A DNA stretch of 55,572 nt from an uncultured bacterium. Its GTDB lineage: Bacteria; CSSED10-310; CAZUFC01. Both the position numbers and the translations under genes were made by a program. Positions 33,584 to 54,343 of the stretch are shown here, one piece after another (the stretch's first letter is position 1; every line of letters starts with the position of its first letter). Location of the stretch: positions 1 through 55,572 of the forward strand of contig CAZUFC010000050.1 of the NCBI GenBank assembly GCA_964619725.1, read 5' to 3'. The notes below the pieces were generated by a model. It ran no database searches, was not told the DNA's origin, and was given only the letters and a program-made list of their open reading frames with translations.

Positions 33584-36500
33584 ATGAAAAAGGCTGTCCC
33601 TGTTGTAATATTTTTATGGGCGGTTGCACTGACTGCCGGTTCCGTTTCGTCAACCGATCACATTCAGATGAATGATGGGCAGAATTGGCGATTTATGGCC
33701 AAAGTAGATCAGTATGTTCTGGATGAACTGGATGCTTTGGGTCAGGCAGATTTTTTTATTGTATTAAAGGAGCAGGCTGATTTTTCAGGCGCTGCATTCC
33801 TGAAGGACAAAAAGGCGAAAGGACGTTTCGTATATGAAAAGCTTTTGTCTGTATCGGAACGGACTCAGGAGGAATTAAGGAAATATCTGAGGGAGAGGAA
33901 TGCCGATTACAGGCCGTATATCATTCAGAATATGATATTAGTTAGGGACGGGGATTATGAGCTGTTAAGCGAGATTTGCCGTCGTAAGGACGTAGCGGAA
34001 ATCAGGGGCAATCGTCCATACGAAGGATTGCAGGAACAGCGTCACGCTTACAGGGATAATGTCGGCAAAGGCATTGAATGGAGCATACTGCACATAAATG
34101 CGGATGCGATATGGGATGAAGGATACACGGGCGAAGGAATCGTTGTGGCGAATCTGGACACGGGAGTGCAATGGGACCATCCGGCCTTAATCAATCAGTA
34201 TAGAGGATGGAACGGTTCCGAAGCGGACCATGATTACAATTGGCACGCGTGCAGCACGAACTACACATGTCCTGATGCATCCGTTCCATGCGATGATTAC
34301 GGGCATGGAACGCATACGATGGGTACCATGGTAGGCGACGACGGCGGTACGAACCAGATAGGCGTAGCCCCGGATGCGCAATGGATCGCCTGCGGACACC
34401 TTGAAGGCGAAGCGGAATTTCACGAATGTTTTGAATGGTTTCTGGCGCCCTATCCTTACGGTCAGGGGCCGGGACAGGGATTGCCTGCAATGGCGCCGGA
34501 TATCGTGAATAATTCCTGGGGATGGCCATACTACGGTGGAGATTATCAGTATGCGCCCGACATAGACGCGCTGCAGGCAGCGGGAGTTTTCATGGAATTT
34601 TCAGCAGGCAATGAAGGCGATTCCTGCCAGACTTTACGTTCGCCCGGAGATTATGCCCAGGTTCTGACCACAGGCGCCAGCGATTCACAGGACAGGATAG
34701 TCAGCACGAGCTGGGAGTATTGGGGATCGAGTCGAGGGCCGTCTCATCCGAACATTCCCGGAGCCCCAGACTTCATCAAGCCTGAACTGGCGGCGCCGGG
34801 ACATGATATCCGTTCGTGCATACCCGGAAATGGATATGAAGGCGGCTGGGGCGGAACGTCAATGGCCGGTCCTCACACATGCGGCGTCATCGCCCTGCTG
34901 TGGTCAGCGGCGCCTCATCTGATAGGCGATATCGAGACCACGCGCAACATCATTATTGATTCGCTCTATACGGATCCGGACGGACAATATCCGGGAGCCG
35001 GCTACTGGAACCAGACCTGCAACGGAATCAACGCCTATGACACGGTACCTAATCATGTCTGGGGCTGGGGACTGCTTGATGCCTGGGCAGCTTTTCAGAT
35101 GCTCTCCGGAGTCGCTATGGACAAAGATGCCTACATGCTTGAAGACGTCATTGAAATAAAAGTTTTAGACCGTGAATCCAGCGGCTCGGTTGAAGTAATC
35201 ATTTACAGCACGACGGAATCCGCTCCGGAAACGGTCGTTTGCAATGAAGAAGAAACCGGTAATTTCGTCGGAACAATAAATTGCTCCAATATACCGCCTT
35301 CAAGCGGAGACGGAATACTGTCCGTTAACCACAATGATGAGATTTTCTGTTATTATGAAGAACTGGATATGGATGATACCGCAATGGCGGACGGTATGGC
35401 GCCCGCCATTTCCGGTGTTGGAACAGAAGAAGTTACGGAAGCGACAGCCGAAATCGCCTGGACTACCGACGAACCCGCTACATCCGTCGTCCATTACGGA
35501 ATAGGCGCGCCGTTGATGATTCAAGCGAACGAGACATTGACCGAAGAACACTCTGTTTTGCTGGAAGGGCTGACGGATTGTTCGCTCTACGTTTTTTATG
35601 TGGAAAGTTCTGACGCCGCAGGCAACCTTGCCGTTGAGGACAATGGAGGCGATTATTTCACATTCCTGACAGATGAACTGAATATAGTCTTCTATGAATC
35701 GATGGATACGAATCCCGACTGGGAGACGGAAGGAGACTGGGAATGGGGTCAGCCCACTGGTCAGGGCGGCTCTTACGGATCGCCTGATCCCGACAGCGGA
35801 TACGACGGCGATAACGTCTACGGTTATAACCTTAACGGAGATTACCCGAACAACATGAGTTCGACGAGATACTTGACCACGCCTTTAATCGACTGTTCCG
35901 AAGCGGTTGAAGTTCGCTTGACCTTTCAGAGATGGCTGGGTCTGGAACGGAATTACTACGATAAAGGATATATCGATATCAGCACGAACGGCGGCTCTTC
36001 CTGGTCAAATGTCTGGACCAACGATGAGACGCTGGACGGCGGCTCCTGGGAATTGATGGAATATGACCTGACAAGTTGGGCCGCTTATCAGTCATCCGTG
36101 AAAATCAGATGGGGCATAGGCCCTACGGATTCCGGGTGGACATACTGCGGGTGGAACATTGATGAGGTCATGGTTTCCTATACGTCACCCTGCGAGCCGC
36201 CCACCGCTACGCCTACTTTAACGCCCACCTGCTCCCCAACCGATACGCCCACATTAACGCCCACAGTAACCCCCACATTAACCCCCACATTCACTATCCC
36301 ACCGTCACCCACAGAAATCGATACTCCGACCTGGCCGCCAACTGCGCCGCCTACCGAAATCCCGACTCTGCCGCCGACTACCCCCACTCCCGTTACGGAA
36401 CTGGGAGTAAGGCTGGAAATGCCGAAAGAGATGTACCATGCAGGCGATGAATGTTACCTGAAAGCCGATCTCACTAATCCCGGATCACCGCTGACGGCAG

Positions 36501-36745
36501 TCCCCCTCTTCGTCATTCTCGACGTCTACCAGGTTTATTTCTACTACCCCGATTGGACCGATTTGCCCGGCTATGCCTTCCACGACATCCCAAACGGCGT
36601 CACGACTCTTTCCGTCATCGATTCATTTACCTGGCCTGAAAATGCCGGAGAAGCTCAAAACATTATATTCTGGGCGGCAATGACTAATCCGCAATTATCC
36701 GAAATATTGGGAAATATGGACTCATTCACTTTCGGATGGGAGTAA
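33584..36745 (+). CDS. Secreted S8 (subtilisin/bacillopeptidase F-like) protease + Ig-like/FN3 + jelly-roll domain + PT linker + conserved CTD
   Basis: Signal peptide; catalytic triad LDTGV, HGTHTMGT, GTSMAGPH; AAGGAG RBS. Confidence 0.93.
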   Translation: MKKAVPVVIFLWAVALTAGSVSSTDHIQMNDGQNWRFMAKVDQYVLDELDALGQADFFIVLKEQADFSGAAFLKDKKAKGRFVYEKLLSVSERTQEELRKYLRERNADYRPYIIQNMILVRDGDYELLSEICRRKDVAEIRGNRPYEGLQEQRHAYRDNVGKGIEWSILHINADAIWDEGYTGEGIVVANLDTGVQWDHPALINQYRGWNGSEADHDYNWHACSTNYTCPDASVPCDDYGHGTHTMGTMVGDDGGTNQIGVAPDAQWIACGHLEGEAEFHECFEWFLAPYPYGQGPGQGLPAMAPDIVNNSWGWPYYGGDYQYAPDIDALQAAGVFMEFSAGNEGDSCQTLRSPGDYAQVLTTGASDSQDRIVSTSWEYWGSSRGPSHPNIPGAPDFIKPELAAPGHDIRSCIPGNGYEGGWGGTSMAGPHTCGVIALLWSAAPHLIGDIETTRNIIIDSLYTDPDGQYPGAGYWNQTCNGINAYDTVPNHVWGWGLLDAWAAFQMLSGVAMDKDAYMLEDVIEIKVLDRESSGSVEVIIYSTTESAPETVVCNEEETGNFVGTINCSNIPPSSGDGILSVNHNDEIFCYYEELDMDDTAMADGMAPAISGVGTEEVTEATAEIAWTTDEPATSVVHYGIGAPLMIQANETLTEEHSVLLEGLTDCSLYVFYVESSDAAGNLAVEDNGGDYFTFLTDELNIVFYESMDTNPDWETEGDWEWGQPTGQGGSYGSPDPDSGYDGDNVYGYNLNGDYPNNMSSTRYLTTPLIDCSEAVEVRLTFQRWLGLERNYYDKGYIDISTNGGSSWSNVWTNDETLDGGSWELMEYDLTSWAAYQSSVKIRWGIGPTDSGWTYCGWNIDEVMVSYTSPCEPPTATPTLTPTCSPTDTPTLTPTVTPTLTPTFTIPPSPTEIDTPTWPPTAPPTEIPTLPPTTPTPVTELGVRLEMPKEMYHAGDECYLKADLTNPGSPLTAVPLFVILDVYQVYFYYPDWTDLPGYAFHDIPNGVTTLSVIDSFTWPENAGEAQNIIFWAAMTNPQLSEILGNMDSFTFGWE

Positions 36746-37141
36746 AATAACCATACTGGATGCCGGTTGCCGAATACCGGATAATTTTTACCCCTGCAGA
36801 AGGGAATGCCGAATATCGCAGGCTGTCAGCCGATGTTGAATTTTCTGCACTCGTATTTCATCTGCAGGTTACTGTCATTATAATTCGCTTTTTCACGAGA
36901 TTCACGGTTGATTTCCGATTCGGCGCTCCCGGCATAACGATGATTAGAGTGTTTTGAAGATATCCGGTGTTTTGCGGAGAGCTCCGATCTCATTCTAACT
37001 TGTAACAAGCGAACTGCCGGCGGTCGATTAAACGTTGTCTTTTTTTCCAGGTTTAAGTATTGTGTTTTACTCGAAAAACTTTGAACCTTTTCGATTTAAG
37101 TATCGTTGATCTTTTCATTTGCTCCCTCGACGGGATGAATA

Positions 37142-37914: not shown

Positions 37915-40900
37915 CTATGGACCGTAACTGAACGTTTCCATGTCGAATTCACCCAGAATATTATCGAATTCCGGCGTCAGAAGAGCTCCGTAGAATTTGA
38001 GTCCTTCAGCGGAGCTGGGTTCGTTCGGCCATACGAAACTGAGAATTTCCCTGTAAAGCGTTTCTATCCCGAGAGAAACGGGTTCGTACGCGAAATCCTC
38101 TCCCCAGGTCGGGTACCAGAAAAACAATCCGTAGACGTCCAGAAGAACGACGAAAGGAATTTGATTGTACGTATCGGGTCCCGGATTGTAGATGTAGGCT
38201 TCAAGCAGGAATTGCGTTCCAGGAGTAAAGTGGGATTCCGACAATATCAGCTCGACTCCCAGCGGATTAGCGGGAGTAGGACTGGGTACCTCCGTGCAAG
38301 TATATGTCGGCGTCGGAGTCAAAGTAGGGGTACAGGTGGGTACGTCTGTCGGGGTATCAGTGGGAATCATCGTAGGAGTGCAGGTCGGCGTCAAAGTAGG
38401 AGTATTGGTCGGAACAGCAGTATTGGTCGGAGTATTCGTGGGAACAGCGGTGTTAGTAGGCGTATTGGTCGGAGGAGTGGTGGGAGATGCCGTGGGGGTG
38501 TTTGTCGGGGGCGGTTCAGTCGGTATCTCTGTCGGTATCTCTGTCGGGATCGGCGTAGGAGTTACAATTTCACCGCATTCGAGCCACAGAAGAATCCTGG
38601 CCAGGACAGTTTTACCCAAAGCCGCATCAGTATTCGCCAACGCAGCCCAGGAGGTCGAGAAAAAGACGGTTTTCCACAGATTCGTCTCTTCGTTGAAATG
38701 AATATTCGTCGAGTCTCCCAATTCGTTTGTGAAGCAAGTATTCTCGACAATCGTCGGATTGACTATATCCGAATAATCCGAGAGCCCAGCAGGAAACGTC
38801 AGAGCCACCGGACCGATGCCATCGCCTATCGGATCACCCTCGACTCCTGTTAACTCCTCCGTACCCTCATCGCTGTCAAAGTCGGAAATGCCCAGATAAT
38901 TCGTGCCGAATGCAGTCAATCCCATATCATAGAGATAATCCTGTGAACTCAGGAACAGCCTTCCGCCCACATCGAGATATTGAATCAGGTTCGCTTCATC
39001 GGTTTCATTAGGACCGGCGCTGCCGGCAAAGCCGAATTTGTCGCCGGAGAACCAGATAATGACGCCGTATTCCATCATTTCAGAAAAGGTGGGACCATCG
39101 CCGGGCCCTCCGCCGATATCAAAAATATCGTAGGTCAGCCCCAGGTCGTCCATGGCTGCCGTGAAGAAATCAATCAAATCGGGGTCGTCATTGTCGTCGT
39201 CCACCAGCAGAATGTCGCAATCGAATGTGAAAGGCGTCGCTGAAGGCGTAACGGTCGGAACTTCTGTGGGTATCTCGGTGGGGGCTTCCGTAGGAACTTC
39301 CGTAGGTATTTCAGTGGGAGCTTCCGTGGGAACTTCCGTAGGTATCTCGGTCGGAGCTTGCGTAGGAACTTCCGTAGGTATTTCGGTGGGAGCTTCTGTA
39401 GGAACTTCCGTTGGTATTTCGGTGGGAGCTTCTGTAGGAACTTCCGTTGGTATTTCCGTAGGTCCTTCAGTGGGTGTAGGCGTAGGCGTACCAACGCATT
39501 GGTTGAGTTCTCCCGGCGACAGATAGCTTTCGCAGAAATCAAAAGCGTTGTCGTCCGTATCGACTCCGTCAATTTTTCGTGAAAGGCTATATTCCTCTGC
39601 CGGTTCAGGAACGTTGTTTCCTTCGCCACAGGATGGATCGCACAATTCACCGTATTGAACAGCATCGAGGACCATGCCGTTCTGATACAACCTGACGGCG
39701 TCGCAGGGCCCGTTCTGCAGTGAACTGCCCAGGTCGTTCTCTTCGAGATCGATATTAGGAACGCCTGTCATTCCTATGAGGAATATCCCGTCACCGGGAA
39801 CGGTATATCCTGTTAAATCGTAACTAGCCGAAACCGAACACGCCTGGTTCAGCGGTTCGACCAGGACTCCGTCCAGCGAGCTTCCGGGAATTCCGAACAA
39901 TTCAATATAGCTGTAATCATCAACGCCGTCGTCATCGTAATATACTTCATTAATCACGACTGCAGCCTGAGCGAAAGTAGGCGTAACGGTTGGAATTTCC
40001 GTGGGCCCTAAAGTAGGAGTCTCCGTCGGAATGTCTGTAGGAACGGGAGTCGTAATTCCTGTAGGAGTCGACGTCGGTTCAGGCGTAAAGGTAGGTCCGA
40101 ACGTAAAAGTGGAAGTGGGGGTCAGAGGTATGCATTCGTTGCTGCTCCCAGGAGTCAGAAAAGCTTCGCAGAAATCAGCAGCATTATTGTCGCTGTCGGC
40201 GCCGTCGATTATCCTTGAAAGTCCGTATTCCTCTGCCGGTTCAGGGGCCGCGGCGCCTTCGCCGCAGAACGGATCGCATGCCTCGCCATACTGCAAACTG
40301 TCAAGAGTTACCGCACCCTGGACGAGTCTGAGGCCGTCGCATGGCCCATTCTGCAGAGCCGTTCCCAGGCCGTTCTCTTCATAATCCACATTCGGCACAT
40401 CCGTCATGCCTATGACGAAAAAGCCGTCCATGGGAATGGAATAGGCGCTCAAGTCGTAAGATGCCGTAACGGAACAATCCTGATTCAGCGTTTCCAGGGT
40501 AATGCCGTTTAACGAAGTTCCGGGCGCTCCGTATATTTCAATGTAACTGAAGTCGTCAGTGCTCTCATCATCATAATAGACTTCATTCAATACGACATCG
40601 ACCGGCACAATCGTAGGCGTTTCAGTGACCACAGCCGTTTCTGTAGGTTCAACCGGCGTTTCCGTAACTATCGGCGTGGGTGTCTGCGTGGGCTCCACCG
40701 GTGTATCCGTAGGCGTGGCATAACAGGCGTTGTCTTCGCCAGGCGACAGAAAACTCTCGCAAAAATCAAGCAGATTATTGTCCGTATCGACTCCGTCTAT
40801 CCGGCGTGAAAGACTGTATTCCTCTGCCGGTTCAGGAACAGAAGCGCCTTCGCCGCAAAGCGGGACGCAACCGTCGCCGTATTGAACCGAATCAAGAATA

Positions 40901-43095
40901 TTACCTGACTGATAGAGCCAGACGCCGTCACAAGGTCCGTTCTGGAGTTCGTCGCCCAGGGTGTTATCTTCCAGATCCAGGTTGGGGACTCCGGTCATTC
41001 CGACTAAGAAGAATCCGTCCATGGGTATGGAATATCCGGTCAAGTTGATGGAAGCCTGTATGGCGCAATCCTGGTTGTAAGGCTCGAGATAAACGCCGTC
41101 CAAAGGCGTGCCGGGTACGCCGTAAATTTCAACATAACTGTAATCATCCGCTCCTTCATCGTCATAATAGACTTCATTGATCACGACGGTCACCGGTGCA
41201 AACGTACCCGTAGGCGACGGAATCACTGTCGGTCCCGTGGTGGGAGTTTCCTCCGGAGTGACGGAAGGTCCTACTGTCGGCGTTTCCGTTGGCGTTATAA
41301 CCATCGTCATCGTCGCAGTCGGCGTGGAAAAACAAACATTCGCTTCGCCGGGAGAAAGGAAACTTTCGCAGAAATCCGTATCGTTGTCGTTGGTGTCCAC
41401 TCCGCAGAGAATCCTGGAAATGCTGTTCTCTTCTGCCGGTTCCGGTTCCGGGGTTCCTTCGCCGCAATCATTCAAACAGTCCGTCCCATACTGAAGAGCG
41501 TCCACTACTACACTATTGTATAAAAGTTCGACGCCGTCGCAGGGTCCGTTCTGCATCGTTGAACCTAAATCGGCCGCATCAAAATCAACATTCGGCACGC
41601 CGCTCATGCCCAAAACGAAATATCCGTCCATGGGCATGGTGTAGCCGAACAGGTCGTACGTCGTTTGAGGATCGCAATCCTGATTCACCGGACGAACAGC
41701 ATAACCGTCAAGGGATACTCCGGGCGAACCGAATAATTCGATGTAACTGTAATCGTCCACGCCATCGTCATCGTAGTATACTTCGTTAATGACAATATCA
41801 GAAAAAACCGGCGTTTCAGTCGGCGCCGGCGTCTGCGATGGACCAAACGTAGGCGTATCGGTCGGAATCGCAGTCGGTCCTTCCGTAAAAACCATTGTCG
41901 GACTCGGCGAAGGTTCTACATAACAACTGTTTGTCTCTCCAGGCGTCAAAAAACTTTCGCAAAAATCACTGTCGTTGTCGTCCGTATCAACGCCGTCCGT
42001 TATACGGGAAATACTGTAATCCTCCCCCGGCTCAGGTTCAGGCGTTCCCTCTCCGCATAAAGGATCACAACCTTCCCCATACTGCACCGCATCTAAAACC
42101 GTTTCTCCCGACATCAGCGTCACCGCGTCGCAGGGTCCGTTCTGAAGACTCGATGATAACGCCTCTACAATAAAATCAACATTGGGAACTCCGCTCATCC
42201 CTATTACAAAGAAACCGTCGCCGGGAATCGTATATCCCGTCAGATCATAAAAACCGGTTTGCGTACAATCCTGATTTACCGGCCGTAATGCCACTCCGTC
42301 CAATGACGTTCCCGGATTCCCATACAATTCCACGTAACTGTAATCGTCGGTGCTCGGATCATCATAATATACTTCATTTATTACCACATCAAGCGGCGGT
42401 AATGTGGGACCGGCAGTCGGCGTATTCGAAGGCTCAGGAGTCGGACTGGGCGTTCCGGCCGTCGGCGTATCCGTCGGCGTCGTTACTATTCCGCTGTTGT
42501 CCGGGTCTGGAGGCGACTGCGTGATGAAATCAGCCGCACTGTCGTTCGTGTCTGTCCCCGGGTCAGATCGCATCAAACTCGATCCTTCCGGCGCATCGTC
42601 CGCACACTGCCCATCAGGCGCCGGAACATCATCGTCATCCGGCAACGCGTTCTCATTCGGCGAATCATACAGCACCGTATCCGTATAACCTAAATTATCA
42701 TTCACGCGCACTCCGTCCGTCGCCGATCCCCCATTCTGGATGCTGGGATCAAAATCTATCTCAAGATCTGGCGTCACTCCCCAATCCGCATCCACGCCGG
42801 ATTCGCCTATTAAAAAATATGACTGACCCTCTATTATCAGTCCGTTGGGAAAAATCAGCGTTCCATAACTGAAATCTGTTCCTCCCCATTCAAGAGACCA
42901 TCCGTCCAACAAAACAGGGTCAACTCCATTGTTATACAATTCAACAAATTCGTGACCTTCGTCACCGCCCGTATGGTCATAATACAATTCAGAAATTAAA
43001 ACATCTCCGAAAACGTTCCCCGCAGCATACAGACAAATTAAAAAAACCATGCATGCTGAAAAAAACGTTTTCCCAAAAGGACCGCTTCGTTCCAT
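37915..43095 (-). CDS. Large acidic secreted protein: six lamin-tail (LTD)-like domains, PT linkers, ILLVDDD alpha/beta domain, conserved CTD
   Basis: Signal peptide; [16 protein letters not shown] then five (I/L)NEVYYDD..DD(Y/F)SY(I/V)E repeats; ATG 43095 with AAGGAGGGG RBS (1726 aa). Confidence 0.88.
39253..39468 (-). repeat. Coding tandem repeat, 6 x 36 bp ([12 protein letters not shown])
   Basis: Translation shows [24 protein letters not shown] x2, [24 protein letters not shown] x2. Confidence 0.9.
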
Positions 43096-43299
43096 CGTCC
43101 CCTCCTTAATTTTTTGGGTGAAAGAAATTTGTGTCTTCACGATAAAGACTAATCCGAGTACCCCTTGTCGTTTATATAAAAATCAAAAATGGTCACCATT
43201 TGTCAAGCAAAAAATCATACAATTCCCTGAATTAACACTTTAATTGCATTATTTTTCTCTAAGACTCGAAAATCACTTGAATAATTCGACAGCGCCTTG

Positions 43300-43394: not shown

Positions 43395-45401
43395 ATGAGA
43401 ATTTCACGACGTTCAAGAGTATTTTTACTGTTGCTGATTTTAGTCCTGTTTAACGCCTGTTCTTCGGATAAGGGCAAGGAAGAGCCGGAGGCTTATGGAA
43501 TAAGAGAAACTTTGTCGGATGCCGTACAAATGGAAACGGTGAAGCTGACTTCGTCCAGCCAGGAACACGGCATGCTGCTTGCCCCTTCAGTAAACGGTCC
43601 TGTAAAGGAGTTGCCCGGCAATATAAAGCCCCGGCTTCGAGTGACGAATTTAAGTTCGGTATTGCGCTCCGGCCGTTTTTTCGGAGTCAGATGGAAAGAT
43701 GAAAACACGATATTTTTAATGAATCTTTGGGGGATCGAGGCGCTGTCGAGAGAGGGTGAAAAATTCATAACGAAGAGCGCCACGGCAACGCCCGGCGATG
43801 CCCGTGATATAGTATTCTGTGGGGATATGGGGTATGCGGCTGACGGATATGCGGGAATATCGGTCATTGATTTTTCCGTCTTAAGTTCTCCGGTCCTGAT
43901 AGAACAGAAGAAAACGAAAGGCAGCATTCGTCAACTAACGCTGGTCGGTGAATATTTGTATGCCTGCAGCGTACTGGAAGGACTGCAGATATTCAGTCCA
44001 TCGGCTGACGGAACGTTGAATTTCATTAGGAACGTTCCGGGGACAGGCCGTGCGTTTTATTTTATTAAGCAGGGAGATACGGGTTATCTGTGTGCCGGCG
44101 GCGACGGCATGCTCGCCTTATCCCTGGCGTCTCCGGAATCGCCTGAAGTAATCGGCCGAATGAAAGAAGTAAGATTCGCTTCTGCGGTATCGCTGCATAA
44201 AGAATTCCTGGCTTTAGTGGACAAAAAAGAAGGTTTACTGATGGTTTCCCGGACAAATGAGCGGGATTTCAAAGCGGTCGGCGCATACCGTGTAAAGCAT
44301 GAAAGCCGGGCGGTCCTGTCGAAGAATGGGATAATATATTTTGCTGAGGCGAATGGACTGCATGTGCTGGAATTTGACGAAGCTTCCGGACGATTTCGGC
44401 GCTTGCAGAAGATAGAGGCGGAAAGCGAATTCCGTTCGTTGGACATCAATGATGATGAACTGTTATCGGGGGACGGCGACTGGGGTTATCGCCTGTTCAA
44501 GATAAAAGAAAACGGAATGTTGAAGGAGCAGGAAAAACGGGGAGTTCTTCGTTTAATAGCCGATGTGGCTTACAAGGGAAATCATATTTATGCGGCAGCG
44601 GGCTACGAAGGATGTCGAATAATAAACGCTGCAGACCCTGAAAATCCGCAGGCAGCAGGATTAATCAGGACTGCGGAACCGGTTCAGTCGATCTGCGTTT
44701 CGGATGACAGGTTGTATGTTTGCGATCATCGTGGATTCCATATTTATGACATAAGCGAACCGGCATCTCCTGTGAAGTTATCGGCAATTTTAACAGAGGG
44801 CCGCACAGTGGGCATTGATGTTCGCGGCGATATAGCAGCAGCGGCATCCTGGTTTTCCGGCGCCCTGCTTTATGACGTTTCAAATCCGGAAAAACCCGTG
44901 AAACTTTCTCAGTATTCGCCGCCGTCAGGCTGGGCGATCGATTTGAAATTCCGGGGGGACATGCTGTATGTTTGCGTAAACAATTACGGTTTAGCCGCAT
45001 TGGACGTTTCTGACGTCCGCAAACCTGTTTTAACGCATCTCAATCAGGAAATTGCAGCCCCGGAAGGACTGGGTTTTTATGGAGAGGTGATGTACGCAGC
45101 GGACTTCAACCTGGGAACAGCTATTTTTGATATTGATGATCCGAAGCATCCCCGTTTCGTTCTCTCTTTAGACACGCATATAGCGAAAGGCATAACGATA
45201 GTCGAGGATATGATGGCGGTATCCAATTATTTGTACGGCGTCAAATTTTTCAGTTTGAGCCCGGACCCATTCGATCCTGAATTGACGGCTGTTTTAGATA
45301 CTCCTGGAAAGGCGTATAACAGTTTAATAAAAGATGATCTGATCTGGATCGCCGACTGGCATTCATTAATATGCTGCAAAGCAGAACGAATCCAGGACTG
45401 A
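43395..45401 (+). CDS. LVIVD-repeat beta-propeller lipoprotein
   Basis: Lipobox LFNA-C after a basic/hydrophobic leader; repeated YAADGYAGISVIDFS and LYDVSNPEKP-type units. Confidence 0.85.
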   Translation: MRISRRSRVFLLLLILVLFNACSSDKGKEEPEAYGIRETLSDAVQMETVKLTSSSQEHGMLLAPSVNGPVKELPGNIKPRLRVTNLSSVLRSGRFFGVRWKDENTIFLMNLWGIEALSREGEKFITKSATATPGDARDIVFCGDMGYAADGYAGISVIDFSVLSSPVLIEQKKTKGSIRQLTLVGEYLYACSVLEGLQIFSPSADGTLNFIRNVPGTGRAFYFIKQGDTGYLCAGGDGMLALSLASPESPEVIGRMKEVRFASAVSLHKEFLALVDKKEGLLMVSRTNERDFKAVGAYRVKHESRAVLSKNGIIYFAEANGLHVLEFDEASGRFRRLQKIEAESEFRSLDINDDELLSGDGDWGYRLFKIKENGMLKEQEKRGVLRLIADVAYKGNHIYAAAGYEGCRIINAADPENPQAAGLIRTAEPVQSICVSDDRLYVCDHRGFHIYDISEPASPVKLSAILTEGRTVGIDVRGDIAAAASWFSGALLYDVSNPEKPVKLSQYSPPSGWAIDLKFRGDMLYVCVNNYGLAALDVSDVRKPVLTHLNQEIAAPEGLGFYGEVMYAADFNLGTAIFDIDDPKHPRFVLSLDTHIAKGITIVEDMMAVSNYLYGVKFFSLSPDPFDPELTAVLDTPGKAYNSLIKDDLIWIADWHSLICCKAERIQD

Positions 45402-45536: not shown

Positions 45537-47600
45537 TTAATTACCGACCAGAAAGAAGGTGGTAACGTCGATGTCGCCCAGCAATTGAAAATTTTCATCA
45601 TCCATGATGACGCCCATGAAGTAAAAAGGTCCTGCTGAAGTGATGTCATAAGGTAAAGGAACGCTCAGGATCGATTCTCTGTAGTAATCATCTTCATTGA
45701 TGAACATGTGCGTAAACACGATTTCTTCGGTCCATTGCGGATGGAAATAATAGCGTCTGAAAACGTCGAGAAGCACTATCTGATTGATCCATCTGGATTC
45801 TTCTTTGTTGATCAACTCTGCGGTAAGACTCAAAACATCGCCGCCATAGAAAAAAGAGCCGTTCAAATCCAGGTAGAGCCCTGTGTCTCTCTCGCCGCCG
45901 GAGAATGGTGTGGGCGTTATGGAAGGATTGGGCGTAGGCGTAGCGGTCGGAGAGTTTACTCCCGTGTAGGTGGGGGCAGGAGTCTGATTATCCACGAATA
46001 TGGCTACGGAATCTGATTCGGAATGTTTATAATCATCGTCGACGGATTGTGCATGAACGACGAGTCCTCCGTCAGGGACGGACGATACGTCCATTTCGTA
46101 TTCCCAGGTCGACCAGGAACCGTCTCCCGACGTGTCTGTCGCCTCTTCGTATAATCCAGCGAATCCGACCTGAACTAAATGAATAGCCCCATCCAGATCA
46201 TCAGCCGATCCTCTTATCATAATAGAACCTTCAGCTACGGTCCCGTTTTCCGGTTCCGTTATTGTCACGACCGGAGGATCATTAGGCAGGAAATCAAAAA
46301 AGAAAAGCGGGAAATACTCGTCAGCATAGTCTCCAAAGTATACCCCGGCTGCCAGGGCCGCATATCTGCCCTCGCAAGATACGCTCGTTCTGCCTAAAAA
46401 AGGCTGCTCCCATTGAGGAACCTGGCTTCTGGACAAAAAAAGCGCGGAAAAGGGCGTAAAAGGAAAAGATATGTTGCCGCTCAAAAAAATTACCGATGCA
46501 TCGCTGTTTATATCAACAAAGGGCAGCGACAACTCATGCTCGTAAATCCATAACCTTGTTCCCTCGCCGGCCGTATCCCACAGCTCCAGCGCTCCGGGAT
46601 ATTCATCTTTTCCTTTAAACAGCGAACGATCTTTCGAGAAAACCTGACGGTCCGACATGGGAATTTCCGGCAGTTCTCCTTTTACGCTTGCGTAGGAACT
46701 GGCATAAACCACATATTCCCCGTCGTCGGTTAACTTAACGTCGTGTCCCAGAGTAGGGAATCCGGAAGTACTGTTTGTCCATATCGGTTCCTTGTCCAGT
46801 CCTGAGCCGGGCGGTTCAGTATCAAAGAACAACAGATTGCTGTTGGCCTCCATTATGATATTCCCCCCGTTTCTCGCCACGTCTATGTATATTTTATTAG
46901 CGCTCATTCCTGTGCCGTCGAATTGCCACATGGGCTCCTCTTCAAAGTTGAAGGAATCAAAAGCAGTGATTTTGGGATCAACGGAATTAGCCATATAAGT
47001 CGCCGCAGCGATAATCGATCCGTCGCCCGACATATCCAGCGACGCCATGCGCACCTGAGACAATTCGTAAGACCATAATTCATTGACTGAAGTCTTTTCA
47101 AAGAAAAAAACCTCCGGCATCGGCAGTATATCGATATTGTTGTAGTTGGCCACAGCGATGTATTGACCGTCGTCCGAAACGGCAAGACAATCGTAATAAA
47201 ACCGGGATATAGGCTTTGACCACAGCAAATCGCCTTCGATGTCAAGCACATATAGAGTGTTGAAATCGACGAACGCTATCGTTTCAGCGTTATAAGAGCA
47301 TTTTATATCGAATATCCAGGCGTTGGGTCGTTCCACTTTGTATTTGAACACCGGTTGATTGCTGCTCCGGTGAAAAAGGCAAACGTAAGAACCAGGATGA
47401 TTCGGCCGCCCCTCCATATCATGCGTTCCAACAGCGACATATTCTCCGCTGCCCGAAGTATCCAGACATATTACATCGTACGATTCTTCCTCTTCCCAGG
47501 ACCAATCATAGATGAATTCGGCTTGAGCGGAAATAATAACGGGAAACAATGCTGCAGCAACGACCCAAAAAGCCGCTGCCTTGATTGTTTTCTTTTCCAT
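45537..47600 (-). CDS. Secreted beta-propeller (WD40/PQQ-like) + Ig-like + PT linker + conserved CTD, paralogue 1
   Basis: Signal peptide; repeated SxxGxYxAV blades; NDPPVVTITEP..GSADD.DG Ig-like domain; AAGGAG RBS. Confidence 0.82.
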   Translation of the reverse strand: MEKKTIKAAAFWVVAAALFPVIISAQAEFIYDWSWEEEESYDVICLDTSGSGEYVAVGTHDMEGRPNHPGSYVCLFHRSSNQPVFKYKVERPNAWIFDIKCSYNAETIAFVDFNTLYVLDIEGDLLWSKPISRFYYDCLAVSDDGQYIAVANYNNIDILPMPEVFFFEKTSVNELWSYELSQVRMASLDMSGDGSIIAAATYMANSVDPKITAFDSFNFEEEPMWQFDGTGMSANKIYIDVARNGGNIIMEANSNLLFFDTEPPGSGLDKEPIWTNSTSGFPTLGHDVKLTDDGEYVVYASSYASVKGELPEIPMSDRQVFSKDRSLFKGKDEYPGALELWDTAGEGTRLWIYEHELSLPFVDINSDASVIFLSGNISFPFTPFSALFLSRSQVPQWEQPFLGRTSVSCEGRYAALAAGVYFGDYADEYFPLFFFDFLPNDPPVVTITEPENGTVAEGSIMIRGSADDLDGAIHLVQVGFAGLYEEATDTSGDGSWSTWEYEMDVSSVPDGGLVVHAQSVDDDYKHSESDSVAIFVDNQTPAPTYTGVNSPTATPTPNPSITPTPFSGGERDTGLYLDLNGSFFYGGDVLSLTAELINKEESRWINQIVLLDVFRRYYFHPQWTEEIVFTHMFINEDDYYRESILSVPLPYDITSAGPFYFMGVIMDDENFQLLGDIDVTTFFLVGN

Positions 47601-47887: not shown

Positions 47888-49873
47888 TCAATTTCCGAAA
47901 AGGAAAAAAGAGACGGCGGAAATGTTGCCGAGCAGTTCAGAATTATCTGCGTCAAGCAAAGCGCCCATGAAGTAAAGGGGTCCGAGGGAGTCCAGTTTCT
48001 GAGGCAGTTGAGCGCTGAGAAGCAGTTCTCTGTAATGGTAATCAGCGCCTAAGAAGTTCTGAACCAGGTCGAGTTCTTCCGTCCAGCTCGGATGGAAGTA
48101 ATATTTTCCGAAAACGTCCAGCATAACGATCTGATACGCCCATCTTGATTCTTCATTATTGTATATGTCGGCGCTGAGCGTAAGGACATCGCCCGGGAAA
48201 TAGATGCTGTCGTTCATAGACAGATATAACCCCGTATTTCCCTCTTCGCCGAACGCCGGGGTCGGCGTGGGAGAAGCCCAGGGTGTGGGAGTATGACTCA
48301 TGCGAGGCGTGTATGTGGGAGCGGGCGTCATATTGTCGACCAGGATAGTAATCTCCTCAGGCTCAGAATGTTTGAATCCGTCGTCTATCGACTCGGCATA
48401 CACGGTCAGTGGACCGTTGGGTATTGACGAAACGTCCAGTTCATATCTCCACGAGTCCCAGGAGTCGTCCCCGGAAATATCTTCGGCTTCCCAGTAAAGA
48501 CCGCGAACGCCCACTTGCACTTTTGCAATCCGGCCGTCAAAATCGTCTGCCGAGCCTTCGATGACCGCTGAAACATCAACAGGCGTATCGGGAAGCGGCG
48601 ATTCAATGGTGCAATAAGGTTGTTCGTTAGGGATAAAATCGAAATAGCTTAACGGTGCAAACTGCTTTTCAAAGTTGCTTACGTATCGGCCCGAAGCCAG
48701 AGCCCCGAAACGGCCTTCTTGTGATACCGACGGCTTGCCCATGTGCGACTGTTCCCAGACCGGCGCCTGGCTTTCGTTTACGAAAAGACCCGCATACGGC
48801 GAATTGGGCGCCGAGATGTCGCCGCTTAAAAAAATCACCGATAAATCTGAATTGCCGTCTAAAAATGGAACATATAACGGCTGCTCATACTTCCATATCC
48901 GGCTGCCGCCTCCGCTCGTATCCCATAACTCCAGAGTCCCCGGATAAACTTCCATCAACCGCACGAAGGCGCTGGCGTAAACAATGTATTGACCGTCATC
49001 GCTTATTTTTACCTGGTGCCCCATGGTGGGAAAACCATCCGTCGTCTTGTACCAAACCGGATATTTTACGCCGTCCGGTTCGGGAAAAGTGTCGAAAAAC
49101 AAAAGATTGCTGTTGGCTTCCAATGCGACGTAATTACCGTCACTCGTTAGGTCGATATACACCTTGTTCGCCGGTATGCCGATGCCCGTGAAATTCCAGA
49201 CCGCTACGCCAGGAGAAGTCACAGCATCAAAAAACGTCAAAAAAGGATCGTAGGAGTTTGCGCCGTAAGTAGCCGCCGCTATCCTGGAACCGTCTGCAGA
49301 CATGTCCAGATACGCCATACGCATCTTGGGCAACTCCGCAGACCATATCTCCTCAGACGAATCACGATGGAAATAAAAAACCGTCGGAGCGAACAGATAA
49401 CTCAAATTATCGTAATTGGCCACTGCGATGTAATCCCCGTCAGAAGAAACCGCAAGACAATCATAATAAAACCTGGATATAACCCTCTTCCAAAGCAATT
49501 CTCCGTCATTATCCAATACGAACAACGTATCATGCGATACAAAGGCAATGGTCTCAGCATTATAAGAGCATTTGACGTCGTATACCCACTCGCTTGGACG
49601 CGTCAGTTCATACCGAAAAACCGGCTGATTGCTTGAACGATGAAAAAGACATACATAGGCGCCTGCCCCATAATCCGGCCTGTTATCGGTATTATGAGTA
49701 CCCACCGCTACATATTCGCCGCTGCCCGAAACATCCAATGCGATTACATCCCGCGATTCTTCCTCCTCCCAGCTCCATAAAGGCGCTATGTCTGATTGAG
49801 AACTCACTGTTCCCCATGACGTCAGAAGAATAAAAATTGTATAAAAAAACACGGCTGTCCTTCGAATTTTCAT
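47888..49873 (-). CDS. Secreted beta-propeller + Ig-like + PT linker + conserved CTD, paralogue 2
   Basis: Colinear with 45537-47600 (for example CLFHRSSNQPVF, KCSYNAETIAFV, ISRFYYDCLAVS); start refined to ATG 49873 with AAGGAG RBS. Confidence 0.82.
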   Translation of the reverse strand: MKIRRTAVFFYTIFILLTSWGTVSSQSDIAPLWSWEEEESRDVIALDVSGSGEYVAVGTHNTDNRPDYGAGAYVCLFHRSSNQPVFRYELTRPSEWVYDVKCSYNAETIAFVSHDTLFVLDNDGELLWKRVISRFYYDCLAVSSDGDYIAVANYDNLSYLFAPTVFYFHRDSSEEIWSAELPKMRMAYLDMSADGSRIAAATYGANSYDPFLTFFDAVTSPGVAVWNFTGIGIPANKVYIDLTSDGNYVALEANSNLLFFDTFPEPDGVKYPVWYKTTDGFPTMGHQVKISDDGQYIVYASAFVRLMEVYPGTLELWDTSGGGSRIWKYEQPLYVPFLDGNSDLSVIFLSGDISAPNSPYAGLFVNESQAPVWEQSHMGKPSVSQEGRFGALASGRYVSNFEKQFAPLSYFDFIPNEQPYCTIESPLPDTPVDVSAVIEGSADDFDGRIAKVQVGVRGLYWEAEDISGDDSWDSWRYELDVSSIPNGPLTVYAESIDDGFKHSEPEEITILVDNMTPAPTYTPRMSHTPTPWASPTPTPAFGEEGNTGLYLSMNDSIYFPGDVLTLSADIYNNEESRWAYQIVMLDVFGKYYFHPSWTEELDLVQNFLGADYHYRELLLSAQLPQKLDSLGPLYFMGALLDADNSELLGNISAVSFFLFGN

Positions 49874-50166
49874 GTCAACCCTTGCTCCTTTCTTTGAAAA
49901 ACCAAGAAAGGTCATCAACCCGCAAAAATTTCTATCACTTTTTATTCCGACAGGCAAAAACGCCTTGCCCTCAATCAAAAATCCGGTTCTTTCGGAATAA
50001 ATAATTCGCTTACCGACATCTCTTGCATAAGCAATAAAAAAAAATAACAATGTAAACGGACATCCATTTGATGAAACGCCGCATTGATCCAGCGCAAACA
50101 CGCGAATGCGCGTCTCAGGCAATGCGGCATGAATAACTGAACATATTAGCATGAAAGGAATTCCAA

Positions 50167-50577
50167 ATGAAAAAGACTGATATAAATTGCCCCTTCTGTT
50201 CCCCATCTTCGAACCGGCGAATAATAATGGAAAATTCCCTCGCTTTCGTGATTTACGACATATATCCTGTGACGGCAGGTCACGCTTTAATCATTCCGAA
50301 ACGTCATTTTTCAGATTTTTTCGATATGAAAGAACAGGAAATGGCAGCGGTGAGAGAGCTGCTTTGCCGTATGCGGGAAAAGAGTTTACAAAAATATCCC
50401 GATATAAGGGGGTTCAATGTCGGCGTTAACGTAGGCGAAGCAGCAGGACAGACTATTCCTCATTGTCACATTCATCTTATTCCTCGGCGAGAAGGGGATA
50501 TGCAGCATCCCGAAGGAGGCGTCAGGGGCGTCATTCCTGAGCAACAGAAGTATGCAGCAAAAGGTAAGACTTCATAA
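50167..50577 (+). CDS. HIT family hydrolase
   Basis: CPFC, YPVTAGHALIIPKRH, GQTIPHCHIHLIPRR (histidine triad). Confidence 0.93.
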   Translation: MKKTDINCPFCSPSSNRRIIMENSLAFVIYDIYPVTAGHALIIPKRHFSDFFDMKEQEMAAVRELLCRMREKSLQKYPDIRGFNVGVNVGEAAGQTIPHCHIHLIPRREGDMQHPEGGVRGVIPEQQKYAAKGKTS

Positions 50578-50617: not shown

Positions 50618-53600
50618 TTATCTCCAGCCGAACCCTACAAAATCTACAGCACAAGTTAATTGGGTCGTTTGAGCGAAAATCATGGCAGTCCAGAATTTTG
50701 CGCCGTTGAATGATCCGGCGCCGGCGGTCCAGTTAAAGGAGAGAACGGTTCGCGCGTAGGTTGATTGAGCGGGAAGATTGAACGTTTCGTAGTCTATATC
50801 CGGAATTTTACTCCAGGAAGGCCAACACCAGTATTCTCCGGCGATTTCCAGAAGGATGTAAACATCAACGCTGCTCACCCGGTCCTTACCGTTCCACATG
50901 ATGATTTTGAGAAGAAAGGGATCGTTTGCTTCAAACATGTGACTGTTCAGAAAAAGTTCGCAGCAGGTTTCCTCGTCGCAGGGAGTCGGCGAAATGATGA
51001 ATGTCGAAGTCCGGGTTGGTTGAGGAGCAGGAGTAGGCAAAAAGGTGGGAGTTGTTGTAGAGATATGAGTGTTCGTAGGAGTATGGGTGGATGTTGCCGT
51101 TGGAGTTCTTGTGGGAGGTACGGGCGTATAAGTGGGGGTATTGGGTCCCGTTGTCCAGGTCGGGGTCGGCGTGGGCGTGGGGAATCCGCTGTTGTTGTTG
51201 TATCCCCAGACTTTGAAATCATCGATATTCCATCCGCTGTCATTGAACATCATGTGAGATTTCAAGGTGAAACGGAACTTGACGTTGAATTGACCGTCAG
51301 CAAACCCGGAGATATCGAACCAGACATATTCCCATTCATCGGAATAATAGCCGTCGTCTTCATAGTAAATCCTGTTCCAGGAGCTTCCGCCGTCGACAGA
51401 TATTTCGAGTTCGACCGAATCTTTAAATATCAGGTCGATGGAGCTGACGTTCAACCATTGGTAAAATTCCACCACGGTCTCTTCGGTATTTCCGCAAAAA
51501 ACAGACGGGGAGATCAAGGAGCAATTGGAATTGGAAGTATAATTGCCGTTGTCGGTAAGGTCGACTCCCCAGACTTTGCCGTTGCCTGAAGTATGGTCGT
51601 GTTCAGGGTCAGGCGCGCCGCCGAAAATACCGCCGCCGAGGCCCGATGGAAAATTCCATTCCCATTGTCCGTCGCCGGTTTCAGTCCATCCTGAAGGAGT
51701 TTCCATATCGTCGCAGAACGCGATTATGCGCTGTTTGGTATGAAATTGAAAATAAGCTCCTCCATTATCGTTTTCCGCGAAATTGCCGGCGCTGTCTTCC
51801 GAACCGACGGCGAAATAATACCAGGTATCCTCCTGCAGGTCAGTCAAATACATGGTGTGACTGTTGGTCGGAAAAGAATCTTCAATAACCGTCTCCGGAG
51901 GCGTAAAAGGATCGAATCGTATTTGTGAGGAACCAAGTTCATCAGTCATCCATCTTATTTCGGCGCTGTCGTGAGCGACATTGCTGACGGCGACCGCAAA
52001 TATCTGGGGCGGCAGGCAGTCGGTTTCCGCTTCATCAAAGACGGTACGCGGCTGACCGTCGCATTCTTCATCATAATATTCCAGTGTGATCGTTTCCCCA
52101 TGACTCGTCAGCAGGTACCCCGGACCTGACTGAGAGTCTGAAAGCTGAATCGTTCCCGTGAATTTTGATGTATCGGGACCTGTTTCATACATAATGATAT
52201 CTTCGCCGGAAGGTTCGCTTCCGGAATATATGCGACATACGCCCGTATCGGACGAATCGGGGTCCAGGTTTAAATGCGTGTCCCACAGTGAGGCTCCAGC
52301 TTCATTCTGGCAGTTATATATATTCCCGTCCAGCCTGACTGAGCCGCAACCCGACGGTTCAACCGGAAGCTCTGCGCTGTAAGGAAGAGAGTCGTGAGCC
52401 GTTACGGTCAGCTTCATTTCTCCTTCAGATGACAGTTCCAGCGGGACGACGGCCTTTCCCTCTTCATTCGTCCATTCAACCTCATAAAATGCTTCATCCT
52501 CCTTCCAACAGCACACCGCAGCGCCCTGTATCGGAACCGAAGCCTGACTCACGCTGACTTCAAAATCCCAACCGCCCAGCGGCGCCGTTGGGATATGTTC
52601 GACGGATAATTCCGTAGGCGTTCGCGTATAAATTTCAACGGCGGGGTCGCCGAAAAGCACATATATCCTGGCGTTGAATATTCCGTAATTCCCAGAAGGA
52701 ATGACTTCCGCCTTGGCTGCATTCAAGATATTGCCTAAAGCAAAATTGCCGTAATCGTATACCGTTTTGTACAACATTTTATCGAAATCGTGATTGGGCG
52801 CGGTATAAGACGACCTGGTGGCTCCCAGAGCGGCTAAAGCGCCTCCGCTTCCCGTGCTTCCCGCATTCATCCAGGCTTCGCAAAGGCATTCGCCGGAATA
52901 GTCGACGGCCGCGTTCAGGCACGCGATATTCCACACGACAGGAGTATGATTGCCGTTATTGAGACTGTAAATATCGGAATTGGACCACCCGATGTTCCAT
53001 GACCATTCGGAAGTATCCCCATGCCCCCTGTAATTCACAAAATTCCGGCCTTCCTCTATCGCTGCCTTCACCTCCTGCCTGGTCGCTCCCTCAGGAGGAT
53101 AATAAGTATCGAATTCGGGAATCACGTATTCGTAGGGATAGTTCATTATTTCATTCTTGCAGCGCGTATACTTGTTGGGATATTCCTGCTCGTGAGCGCA
53201 CAGCATGCTCCTGTCCAGCCAGCCGTCCAGAGGCGGATTCTGCAGATAGTTCAGGGTCCGCGCCGCCATATGAGAAACCGCAGTCGAAGAACTTGTACAA
53301 AACCGGCCTATGCCGATTTCCGGATAATAATCGGAACCGTCCAGGCACGTGTAATCATGATCGCCGATCCCCGTATCGCCCCCCTGATTGACCTGGCACA
53401 TCGGTATGTCCGCTATCTCGCCTACAAGCAATACCTGTTCGATGCCTTCATTAACATAATATCCCTCAATGAACGACTTAATCTGCTGGCTCGTTGAACC
53501 CGTCTGAGATGCCGGAACAGCTTCTGCAAAGAATCCCCTTCGCGTATGCCAGTCCCTCAACGGCAGAATTGAATCGTACAGATGGTCCGCAGCGATGATC

Positions 53601-54343
53601 AAATACCTGACCGCATCCTCCCTGACTCCCACAGGACCATGGTCGCAACATTCATAATTTAACACCATAGATTCATACATCTTATCATAGGCCGGCGAAA
53701 TCAGTCCTGTTGCGCCGCTCGATTCTATTTCGCTCCCGCTAACCGTGAAATCAATCCTTAAGCTCGCTTCGCGCACGGCTTCCAATACCTTTTCAGAAGC
53801 ATGATAACTGAATGGAATTATTTTAAGCTCGGCCATCCCTATGTCCCGCCAAATCATCGGCTCTGAACAAACGATCATTTCCCCAGGATATACTCCATGC
53901 TCATAAATTTCCCTGTTCATTATAATATCAAAAGTCGACTCATCTTTTTCCGGAACTTGAGCGGGAAAAATCCGGCAATCGGGTATACGGACCGACTTCA
54001 GTTCTAAAATATCGATTGCAGCTTCCCCGCCTTCGGGAACCATTATTCGCTCCAACAGCAGCGGCAACTGCGGATATCCGGTTTCAACAGTGACACCGGC
54101 ATTCGGCATTGTTATTTTCTGGAAGCGTCCCCGGGACGTCTGCTCCTCTTCCAGGAAAAAACCGGAAAACGACAGTTTCAGCACGATATAATATTGACTG
54201 GACTCAGTTATTCGTATTTCAGGCGGAGCGCCTTCCTCGCCTTTTCCAATATTAATCCATGAAAGGCTAGAATCGCTGATTGCTTTGACTGTTCCTGCCC
54301 AGCAAATACAGACAAGGACCATGACAAGCATTGCTTTATTCAT
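50618..54343 (-). CDS. Secreted C25 (gingipain-like) cysteine peptidase with propeptide, Ig-like/FN3, jelly-roll domain, PT linker and conserved CTD
   Basis: Signal peptide; VLLVGE, IGIGRF, NYRGHG (His), WNIACLNA (Cys), VLFGDP; GGAGG RBS. Confidence 0.9.
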   Translation of the reverse strand: MNKAMLVMVLVCICWAGTVKAISDSSLSWINIGKGEEGAPPEIRITESSQYYIVLKLSFSGFFLEEEQTSRGRFQKITMPNAGVTVETGYPQLPLLLERIMVPEGGEAAIDILELKSVRIPDCRIFPAQVPEKDESTFDIIMNREIYEHGVYPGEMIVCSEPMIWRDIGMAELKIIPFSYHASEKVLEAVREASLRIDFTVSGSEIESSGATGLISPAYDKMYESMVLNYECCDHGPVGVREDAVRYLIIAADHLYDSILPLRDWHTRRGFFAEAVPASQTGSTSQQIKSFIEGYYVNEGIEQVLLVGEIADIPMCQVNQGGDTGIGDHDYTCLDGSDYYPEIGIGRFCTSSSTAVSHMAARTLNYLQNPPLDGWLDRSMLCAHEQEYPNKYTRCKNEIMNYPYEYVIPEFDTYYPPEGATRQEVKAAIEEGRNFVNYRGHGDTSEWSWNIGWSNSDIYSLNNGNHTPVVWNIACLNAAVDYSGECLCEAWMNAGSTGSGGALAALGATRSSYTAPNHDFDKMLYKTVYDYGNFALGNILNAAKAEVIPSGNYGIFNARIYVLFGDPAVEIYTRTPTELSVEHIPTAPLGGWDFEVSVSQASVPIQGAAVCCWKEDEAFYEVEWTNEEGKAVVPLELSSEGEMKLTVTAHDSLPYSAELPVEPSGCGSVRLDGNIYNCQNEAGASLWDTHLNLDPDSSDTGVCRIYSGSEPSGEDIIMYETGPDTSKFTGTIQLSDSQSGPGYLLTSHGETITLEYYDEECDGQPRTVFDEAETDCLPPQIFAVAVSNVAHDSAEIRWMTDELGSSQIRFDPFTPPETVIEDSFPTNSHTMYLTDLQEDTWYYFAVGSEDSAGNFAENDNGGAYFQFHTKQRIIAFCDDMETPSGWTETGDGQWEWNFPSGLGGGIFGGAPDPEHDHTSGNGKVWGVDLTDNGNYTSNSNCSLISPSVFCGNTEETVVEFYQWLNVSSIDLIFKDSVELEISVDGGSSWNRIYYEDDGYYSDEWEYVWFDISGFADGQFNVKFRFTLKSHMMFNDSGWNIDDFKVWGYNNNSGFPTPTPTPTWTTGPNTPTYTPVPPTRTPTATSTHTPTNTHISTTTPTFLPTPAPQPTRTSTFIISPTPCDEETCCELFLNSHMFEANDPFLLKIIMWNGKDRVSSVDVYILLEIAGEYWCWPSWSKIPDIDYETFNLPAQSTYARTVLSFNWTAGAGSFNGAKFWTAMIFAQTTQLTCAVDFVGFGWR

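Follow-up and report, generated by a model that had tools for sequence, protein, structure and literature searches.

Shared terminal module of five secreted proteins

Contig CAZUFC010000050.1 (assembly GCA_964619725.1), from an uncultured bacterium of the CSSED10-310 lineage, was analysed over its whole length of 55,572 nucleotides (nt), here called the window. Six long genes lie between positions 33584 and 54343, and five of the six encode proteins that end in a shared segment, referred to below as the module, which is about 112 residues long and usually stands behind a Pro/Thr linker. The genes, their modules and one linker are as follows.

33584..36745, + strand: P0001, secreted S8 subtilase of 1053 amino acids (aa), with signal peptide, S8 domain, FN3-like and MAM-like region, Pro/Thr linker and terminal module (Pfam Peptidase_S8, E 2.6e-35)
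36188..36400, + strand: Pro/Thr-rich linker of P0001, read off the translation, limits approximate
36401..36742, + strand: terminal module of P0001, residues about 940-1053, a predicted beta sandwich (profile matches; AlphaFold2 confidence 91.4 with 5 sequences and 98.1 with 28)
37915..43140, - strand: P0002, LTD-repeat protein, reading frame of 1741 aa, with long Pro/Thr linkers and terminal module (Pfam LTD, E 2.8e-33)
37918..38262, - strand: terminal module of P0002 (profile matches; leave-one-out E 2.6e-24)
43395..45401, + strand: P0006, LVIVD-repeat beta-propeller protein with a lipoprotein-like N-terminus (LFNAC), module-free (Pfam LVIVD, E 1e-19)
45537..47600, - strand: P0003, 687 aa, with signal peptide, propeller-like region (weak Pfam matches only), Big_7 Ig domain, short Pro/Thr linker and terminal module
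45540..45887, - strand: terminal module of P0003 (profile E 5.3e-50; 53% identity to the P0004 module)
47888..50206, - strand: P0004, paralogue of P0003, reading frame of 772 aa, or 661 aa from the likely start at nt 49873
47891..48238, - strand: terminal module of P0004 (profile matches; leave-one-out E 2.7e-31)
50618..54343, - strand: P0005, C25 (gingipain-family) peptidase of 1241 aa, with signal peptide, C25 propeptide, C25 catalytic domain, FN3-like and MAM-like region, Pro/Thr linker and terminal module
50621..50971, - strand: terminal module of P0005, which diverges most among the five copies (profile match; leave-one-out E 1.6e-16)

The first-pass annotation of this DNA, which had proposed these five open reading frames (ORFs) and a domain common to their C-termini, proved accurate on both counts. 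The last ~115 residues of the five proteins align over their full length with nine invariant columns, and the motifs quoted earlier, including VILDVYQVYFYYPDW and the final aromatic strands, are visible in the alignment. The conserved signature is aromatic, reading LDV[YF]G.Y[WFY][FW].P.W, then F.WP, then a terminal F[GS][WYF], and aromatic residues make up 16-20% of the module compared with 9-15% of the remainder of each protein. A hidden Markov model (HMM) built from the five copies and run against the 691 six-frame ORFs of the window retrieved exactly those five (E 5e-50 to 1.5e-48; next best E 3.7) and no sixth copy, and leave-one-out HMMs recovered every omitted copy with E values of 9.7e-23, 2.6e-24, 1.1e-29, 2.7e-31 and 1.6e-16. 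Pairwise BLASTP connected nine of the ten pairs at E <= 5e-4, P0003/P0005 reaching only 0.37. Overall the similarity far exceeds chance; the terminal segments are one homologous module on unrelated signal-peptide cargo.

N-termini resembling Sec signal peptides, and Pro/Thr linkers, both also reported earlier for the five proteins, can be seen in the translations by eye and with a crude heuristic, with two adjustments to the gene models. Homology with P0003 indicates that P0004 most likely starts at residue 112, where its signal peptide aligns with that of P0003, and P0002 most likely starts at M16 (nt 43095), after which a signal-peptide-like segment follows. Pfam bore out the S8, LTD and C25 labels given to the cargo, while the label 'propeller' for P0003 and P0004 is weakly founded, the matches of both to beta-propeller families lying far below the curated cut-offs. 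P0005 matched both Peptidase_C25 (E 4.6e-56) and Propeptide_C25 (E 2.7e-17), and scored 67.6 bits on the NCBIfam PorU model against a cut-off of 420.

P0001 and P0005 share more than the module alone: a common C-terminal block of about 550 residues (31% identity, E 1e-49) takes in an FN3-like region (24.6 bits, cut-off 30), then one resembling MAM/'choice-of-anchor J' (below cut-off), and finally linker and module. The block gave weak matches to purple-acid-phosphatase-N/FN3-like and Reelin-subrepeat/MAM/'choice-of-anchor J' models, and was also seen on S8 and C25 proteins of other metagenome-assembled genomes (MAGs). In P0002, six LTD-like repeats could be made out by eye with Pro/Thr linkers between them, including a near-perfect tandem run of short units, and about 260 residues without a Pfam match precede the final linker and module.

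Predicted fold and library searches

AlphaFold2 predicted the module to be an eight-strand Ig-like beta sandwich. With 5 sequences the best model had a predicted local distance difference test score (pLDDT) of 91.4, but confidence was limited to two of the five models; with 28 sequences every one of the five scored pLDDT 97.6-98.1, with a predicted template modelling score (pTM) of 0.88. This confident prediction had no close counterpart among the PDB matches listed. Those that Foldseek listed for the two models were generic Ig-like sandwiches, the closest among them being CARDB at a template modelling score (TM) of 0.61-0.66 and 12-13% identity. Other neighbours were dextranase and GH3 accessory domains, macroglobulin domains and ML lipid-binding domains (MD-2, Der p 2, NPC2), and at TM about 0.5 the Wzt O-antigen-binding domain and a porphyran carbohydrate-binding module (CBM; 8wae, TM 0.50-0.54). 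For each model, the best 50 of at least 500 PDB matches contained no type IX secretion system (T9SS) C-terminal domain.

Sequence libraries were likewise without a model for the module. Scans at E <= 10 against Pfam, with 5 and with 28 members, and against NCBIfam, with the five modules, gave nothing recurrent; the T9SS sorting-domain models TIGR04183, PF18962 and TIGR04131, whose presence is assumed from the library descriptions, had no match, nor did CARDB (PF07705), SLH, PPC (PF04151), FlgD_ig (PF13860) or the CBM families of Pfam. These comparisons include the T9SS and FlgD_ig models that the first-pass annotation had singled out. Dockerin_1 did not match the module, whose predicted fold is all-beta; it was detected elsewhere in module-bearing lineages, and the search is therefore able to find it. 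The earlier statement that the module lacks LPXTG and PEP motifs, a transmembrane-plus-basic tail, and SLH, dockerin and T9SS motifs was upheld by motif and model scans: LPXT[GAS] and PEP motifs were absent from the five proteins, hydrophobic runs in their last 60 residues did not exceed 7, and at most one K or R occurred in the last 8 residues, with no basic tail. When the profile was run against PDB sequences, the top match had E 0.072, to LRP6 propeller repeats, which we take as chance. The ESM Atlas gave unnamed clusters (best 0.94), and the best named cluster (0.78, a ceramidase C-terminal domain, SlaA-like) was at chance level by the tool's calibration. Our literature search found no description of the module.

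Family size, lineages and cargo

A profile search of 1.84 billion cluster representatives at 50% identity found 2423 that bear the module at E <= 1e-3, of which 1870 reach E <= 1e-10. Precomputed Pfam domains of the relatives never cover the module, and CSSED10-310 is the sole phylum name that any of these relatives bears. In a scan of GTDB with one genome per species, 154 of 162 matching stretches were confirmed as the module, counts that are lower bounds because a single peptide pattern was searched. The best 80 of these 154 matches were kept and gave 70 loci from ten MAGs, five labelled CSSED10-310, four 'uncultured bacterium' or 'bacterium' and one Saccharibacteria. The link to CSSED10-310, which the first-pass annotation had suggested, is thus borne out. 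Up to 44 module copies were counted per MAG, within the fetched parts of one genome. The window itself had no nucleotide match to the 70 loci at E <= 1e-20 and no informative housekeeping overlap with them. Taken together, the family is absent from the searched libraries, large and concentrated in few lineages, while its general kind, one module on many secreted proteins, is already known.

Cargo domains were recognised by Pfam in 42 of 71 homologues scanned, none of them on the module itself. They comprised beta-helix, NosD or Chlam_PMP types (17 of the 42), peptidases of six families (7; C1, M1, M14, S8, C25 and trypsin-like), LTD (2) and others (16), including Kelch, FG-GAP, BNR, CBM96, GH57, GH123, PETase-like and Exo_endo_phos; PEBP, FGE-sulfatase and peroxiredoxin-type domains were further cargo. 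In the JAFGLW genome, modules 74-81% identical to each other sit on cargo without detectable mutual similarity, and the module is evidently shuffled between unrelated cargo. The family probably extends past the reach of the present profile, because a borderline, divergent terminal copy (independent E 0.036, residues 1534-1620) was found on a 1623-aa C25 peptidase with Kelch repeats (L043:11277-16148).

The protein from the Saccharibacteria-labelled MAG (L064:9140-10321, OZ246404.1) has 393 aa, a signal peptide, a weak beta-helix match and a C-terminal module (E 2e-25). Its record is a 1.14-Mb chromosome labelled Candidatus Saccharibacteria, on which HypD, AIR-synthase-like and ATP synthase genes are neighbours. 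Saccharibacteria are not known to have an outer membrane; the protein could reflect horizontal transfer or a mislabelled record, and if the label is correct the module works in an outer-membrane-free cell.

Position of the module and secreted context

The position of the module was assessed in two sets, 162 stored module proteins that include those of the window and 128 distinct module ORFs in 1.12 Mb of fetched locus DNA. The module ends within five residues of the C-terminus in 153 of the 162 stored proteins and 114 of the 128 locus ORFs; in the stored set 0-3 residues follow the module in 151 proteins, and 137 show a terminal F[GSA][WYF] plus at most five residues. By a lenient heuristic, a signal-peptide-like N-terminus was present in 100 of 110 module genes compared with 157 of 461 neighbours, and by a strict heuristic applied at the first start codon in 64 of 110 compared with 95 of 461. 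A Pro/Thr-rich stretch lies ahead of the module in 73 of 124 cases. The family-wide pattern that had been predicted from the five window proteins, C-terminal matches on signal-peptide proteins, is therefore what the wider sample shows.

Exceptions were nevertheless found. Six of the 14 non-terminal locus ORFs have just 6-19 residues after the module, and eight are clear exceptions: a strictly C-terminal position would be expected of a T9SS domain, but the module is N-terminal in four of these ORFs and penultimate in the other four. In L034 and L030 it lies directly behind the signal peptide with a PEBP domain after it (PBP confirmed by Pfam), and in L051 and L019 what follows is a Pro/Thr linker with one or two FGE-sulfatase domains behind it, also confirmed by Pfam. 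In L025, L032, L018 and L011 a linker and a further domain of about 100 aa, common to these four, come after the module. Among the representatives, three (P0040, P0059 and P0127) have 81-220 residues after it.

The second terminal domain of these four genomes contains Cys, follows the module and a further Pro/Thr linker, ends in KGWCVAG or KGWGVAG, shows 47-70% identity to the L018 copy and has only a weak Cep192_D3 Ig-like match in Pfam. The genes that encode it (L025:1235-4714, L032:4223-7603, L018:7127-10810 and L011:7190-10861) lie, in three of the four loci, directly downstream of the C25 genes that bear a dockerin and a cohesin, described next.

Dockerin exchange and gene neighbourhoods

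Full-length orthologues of the P0005 peptidase in three other MAGs (28% identity over >1000 aa) end in a dockerin and, directly after it, a cohesin, in the same slot that the module occupies in P0005. The three genes are L018:2994-6851, L011:3141-6956 and L032:306-4103, the assignment resting on Pfam for L018 and L032 and made by eye for L011. In L032 the matches were clear (Dockerin_1 2e-7, Cohesin 9.6e-9); in L018 both were weaker, with the cohesin slightly under its curated cut-off. Cohesin-dockerin assembly thus seems to be used on proteases in these uncultured lineages. A GH44 enzyme with a dockerin was also seen, in L010.

To survey the surroundings of module genes, the 762 genes lying within ±10 kb of them in the 70 loci were clustered. 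No recurrent non-cargo family of translocon or sortase type was found beside module genes among these 762 genes. Families that did recur comprised Ser/Thr kinase-TPR proteins, sigma-54 activators, RlmN, glycosyltransferases, a TMEM260-like O-mannosyltransferase and a type II secretin. No family among them resembles a dedicated machine, and the Pfam families of 27 scanned locus proteins included no T9SS component within the same ±10 kb. The type II secretin was present in three genomes of the locus set, indicating that an ordinary export route exists. C25 peptidases account for 11 of the 762 genes, and 8 of these 11 are without a module.

Other features of the window and loci

Two candidates within the gene cluster were considered as receptors of the module and dropped. 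One was the LVIVD lipoprotein P0006, for which a search of the 70 loci at E 1e-10 found no relative; the other was a 112-aa ORF (37142-37480, + strand) lying where 1.2 kb separate the convergent S8 and LTD genes, an ORF that has two hydrophobic, probably membrane-spanning segments, had no relatives in the 70 loci and may not be a real gene. Glycosyltransferases of the PMT_2 type are encoded at 10620-12920 and 29423-31516, one of them fused to a PA14 domain, and a TMEM260-like protein O-mannosyltransferase occurs in four module-rich genomes (e.g. L024:7881-9863). The long Pro/Thr linkers could be O-glycosylated. The closest named relatives of a class-III aminotransferase (20367-21671, + strand) are from Candidatus Xenobiia (80%) and Eremiobacteraeota (76%), not CSSED10-310; by this gene, the organism of the window may come from another lineage than the one to which most named relatives of the module belong. 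An Rfam scan of the window gave no RNA family.

Function of the module

We propose, at a probability of roughly one half, that the module is an autonomous, position-tolerant address module that is exported by Sec together with its cargo and binds a common ligand of the envelope or matrix, leading to surface retention. In a few uncultured lineages, including CSSED10-310, the module has spread to tens of Sec-exported proteins in each genome, usually at the C-terminus behind a flexible Pro/Thr linker. It would fold independently after Sec export and bind non-covalently to a common partner, for instance a scaffold protein, a glycan or a polymer linked to lipid, and the cargo, which includes proteases, propellers and adhesin-like beta-helix proteins, would be kept displayed near the cell. 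Its mode of action would thus resemble that of dockerins, SLH domains and cell-wall-binding domains, unlike that of a terminal secretion signal that is cleaved. More generally, its role is most likely to tether or target proteins that are exported, and it is unlikely to be a strict export signal.

An obligately terminal signal is disfavoured because the module also occurs in N-terminal and penultimate positions, and its exchange with a dockerin plus cohesin in orthologous peptidases favours a role in assembly or anchoring. We also count the glycan- and lipid-binding sandwiches among its weak fold neighbours (the Wzt domain, the porphyran CBM and ML domains) as consistent with binding. The first-pass annotation had named a recognition signal for a dedicated export machine, a proposal that is not supported in that form, given the N-terminal and penultimate copies and the lack of a recurrent non-cargo flanking family in the 70 loci. 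The alternative it named, binding to a surface scaffold or anchor, fits these data better, with the binding function, the ligand and the surface retention being the parts that we infer.

Like dockerins, the module would be a modular address tag, mostly C-terminal though tolerant of other positions, that flexible linkers connect to diverse secreted proteins; in orthologous C25 peptidases one slot is filled either by the module or by a dockerin plus cohesin. Dockerins consist of a duplicated calcium-binding helical segment some 60 residues long, whereas the module is predicted to be an all-beta sandwich of about 112 residues with a putative partner. With SLH and other non-covalent surface-binding domains the module shares the proposed logic, a terminal domain on either protein end that holds exoproteins on an envelope polymer; in contrast to SLH, it has no sequence relation to that family, belongs to a different fold class and has a ligand that is only proposed. 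CARDB (PF07705; PDB 3idu, 2kl6), an Ig-like sandwich of cell-surface proteins, is the nearest solved fold, with the similarity extending over about 120 columns, but in view of the low identity, the missing Pfam match and Foldseek E values of 1e-3 to 1e-2 the likeness is one of general fold.

Several observations weigh against our proposal. The C-terminal bias of 89-94% and an aromatic end 0-3 residues from the stop would also be expected of a sorting signal, and copies in N-terminal or penultimate positions make up only 8 of the 128 locus ORFs; among them, the FGE-linked copies could be co-opted, as they are divergent (E 1e-18 to 1e-21). Machinery encoded more than 10 kb from the module genes would lie outside the view of the survey. 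The predicted fold has generic neighbours at TM <= 0.66, and the ligand or partner of the module is putative. Moreover, a module-free C25 peptidase directly adjoins a module gene in seven of eight cases, compared with 168 of 636 (26%) for all module-free genes, which hints at a PorU-like processing enzyme. We treat this adjacency as a lead only, because it represents about three independent syntenic contexts and all loci were picked around module genes.

These points bear most directly on the possibility that the module is the C-terminal sorting signal of a dedicated pathway for export and attachment at the outer membrane, comparable to the T9SS C-terminal domains yet outside the Bacteroidota group. 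In such a pathway a C25 peptidase would perhaps be PorU-like, cutting off the module and fixing the cargo on the surface. Like the T9SS domains of type A (TIGR04183/Por_Secre_tail) and type B (TIGR04131), the module is a small C-terminal beta sandwich, here predicted as Ig-like, found on unrelated Sec-exported cargo in tens of copies per genome, and C25-family peptidases, to which PorU of the T9SS belongs, occur in the module gene neighbourhoods; the cluster in the window itself ends with one. The carrier phylum, sister to Acidobacteriota, is predicted to be Gram-negative (PMC8248873, in which the module domain is not mentioned). Unlike those domains, the module is not obligatorily terminal, as the eight exceptional locus ORFs and the three representatives with an internal copy illustrate, it has no sequence match to T9SS sorting-domain models with either 5 or 28 members, and its carriers include CSSED10-310. 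The window C25 peptidase falls far short of the PorU cut-off, no candidate translocon recurs near module genes, and one module protein lies in the Saccharibacteria-labelled MAG, a label that is unverified, from a group not known to have an outer membrane. We therefore regard a sorting signal as possible, at distinctly less than even odds. In its most specific form, the module would be the cargo tag of an undescribed sorting and surface-attachment pathway in CSSED10-310 and allied lineages, with C25 as a PorU-like sortase and a recogniser in the outer membrane; T9SS-like logic would then have arisen independently, outside the Bacteroidota group. This form we find doubtful.

A flexible Pro/Thr linker followed by a small, aromatic-rich beta sandwich is also the arrangement of classical CBMs such as CBM2, raising the question of whether the module sends secreted enzymes to an external polymer rather than to the cell's own surface. 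The aromatic enrichment of the module, its position independence, the weak fold matches to the porphyran CBM and the Wzt carbohydrate-binding domain and some carbohydrate-active cargo (GH57, GH123, CBM96) are in keeping with this idea, which we nonetheless consider unlikely: a recognised glycoside hydrolase (GH) or CBM was present in just four of the 42 annotated cargo sets (GH57, GH123 and two CBM96), the cargo being mostly not carbohydrate-active, and there is no polysaccharide substrate that peptidase, LTD, Kelch, PEBP, FGE-sulfatase and peroxiredoxin-type cargo would share, while the 17 beta-helix-type sets have no assigned activity. Tens of paralogues per genome on mixed cargo would be unusual for a CBM, and no Pfam CBM family matched in sequence. 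Very unlikely, in our estimate, is a transient C-terminal extension resembling PPC domains, which would assist folding or transit, or hold hydrolases in an inactive state, and would be removed once exported, with no addressing role. PPC domains are small beta sandwiches too, and the module is C-terminal on many secreted peptidases (S8, C25, C1, M1, M14 and trypsin-like); against this, 35 of the 42 annotated sets are non-peptidase cargo, the module is found N-terminally as well, nothing in Pfam, PPC included, matched it at E <= 10, and the exchange with a dockerin plus cohesin points to an assembly role.

Significance

The way in which bacterial surfaces are built is defined by shared terminal modules, among them T9SS C-terminal domains, dockerins, SLH domains and sortase signals, which also allow exoproteomes to be predicted from sequence. 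The module is found in at least 2423 clusters at 50% identity, yet no Pfam or NCBIfam model exists for it, and the proteins that carry it are consequently annotated by their cargo alone or as hypothetical. A profile of the module would flag the surface and secreted proteome of the poorly known CSSED10-310 and its relatives, and as a predicted well-folded, expressible domain of 112 residues the module offers a handle on the ligand or machine that recognises it. If the sorting interpretation is true, the module would mark a new secretion and attachment pathway; if it is instead an anchor, as we propose, it would represent a new class of surface-display module, usable for protein display.

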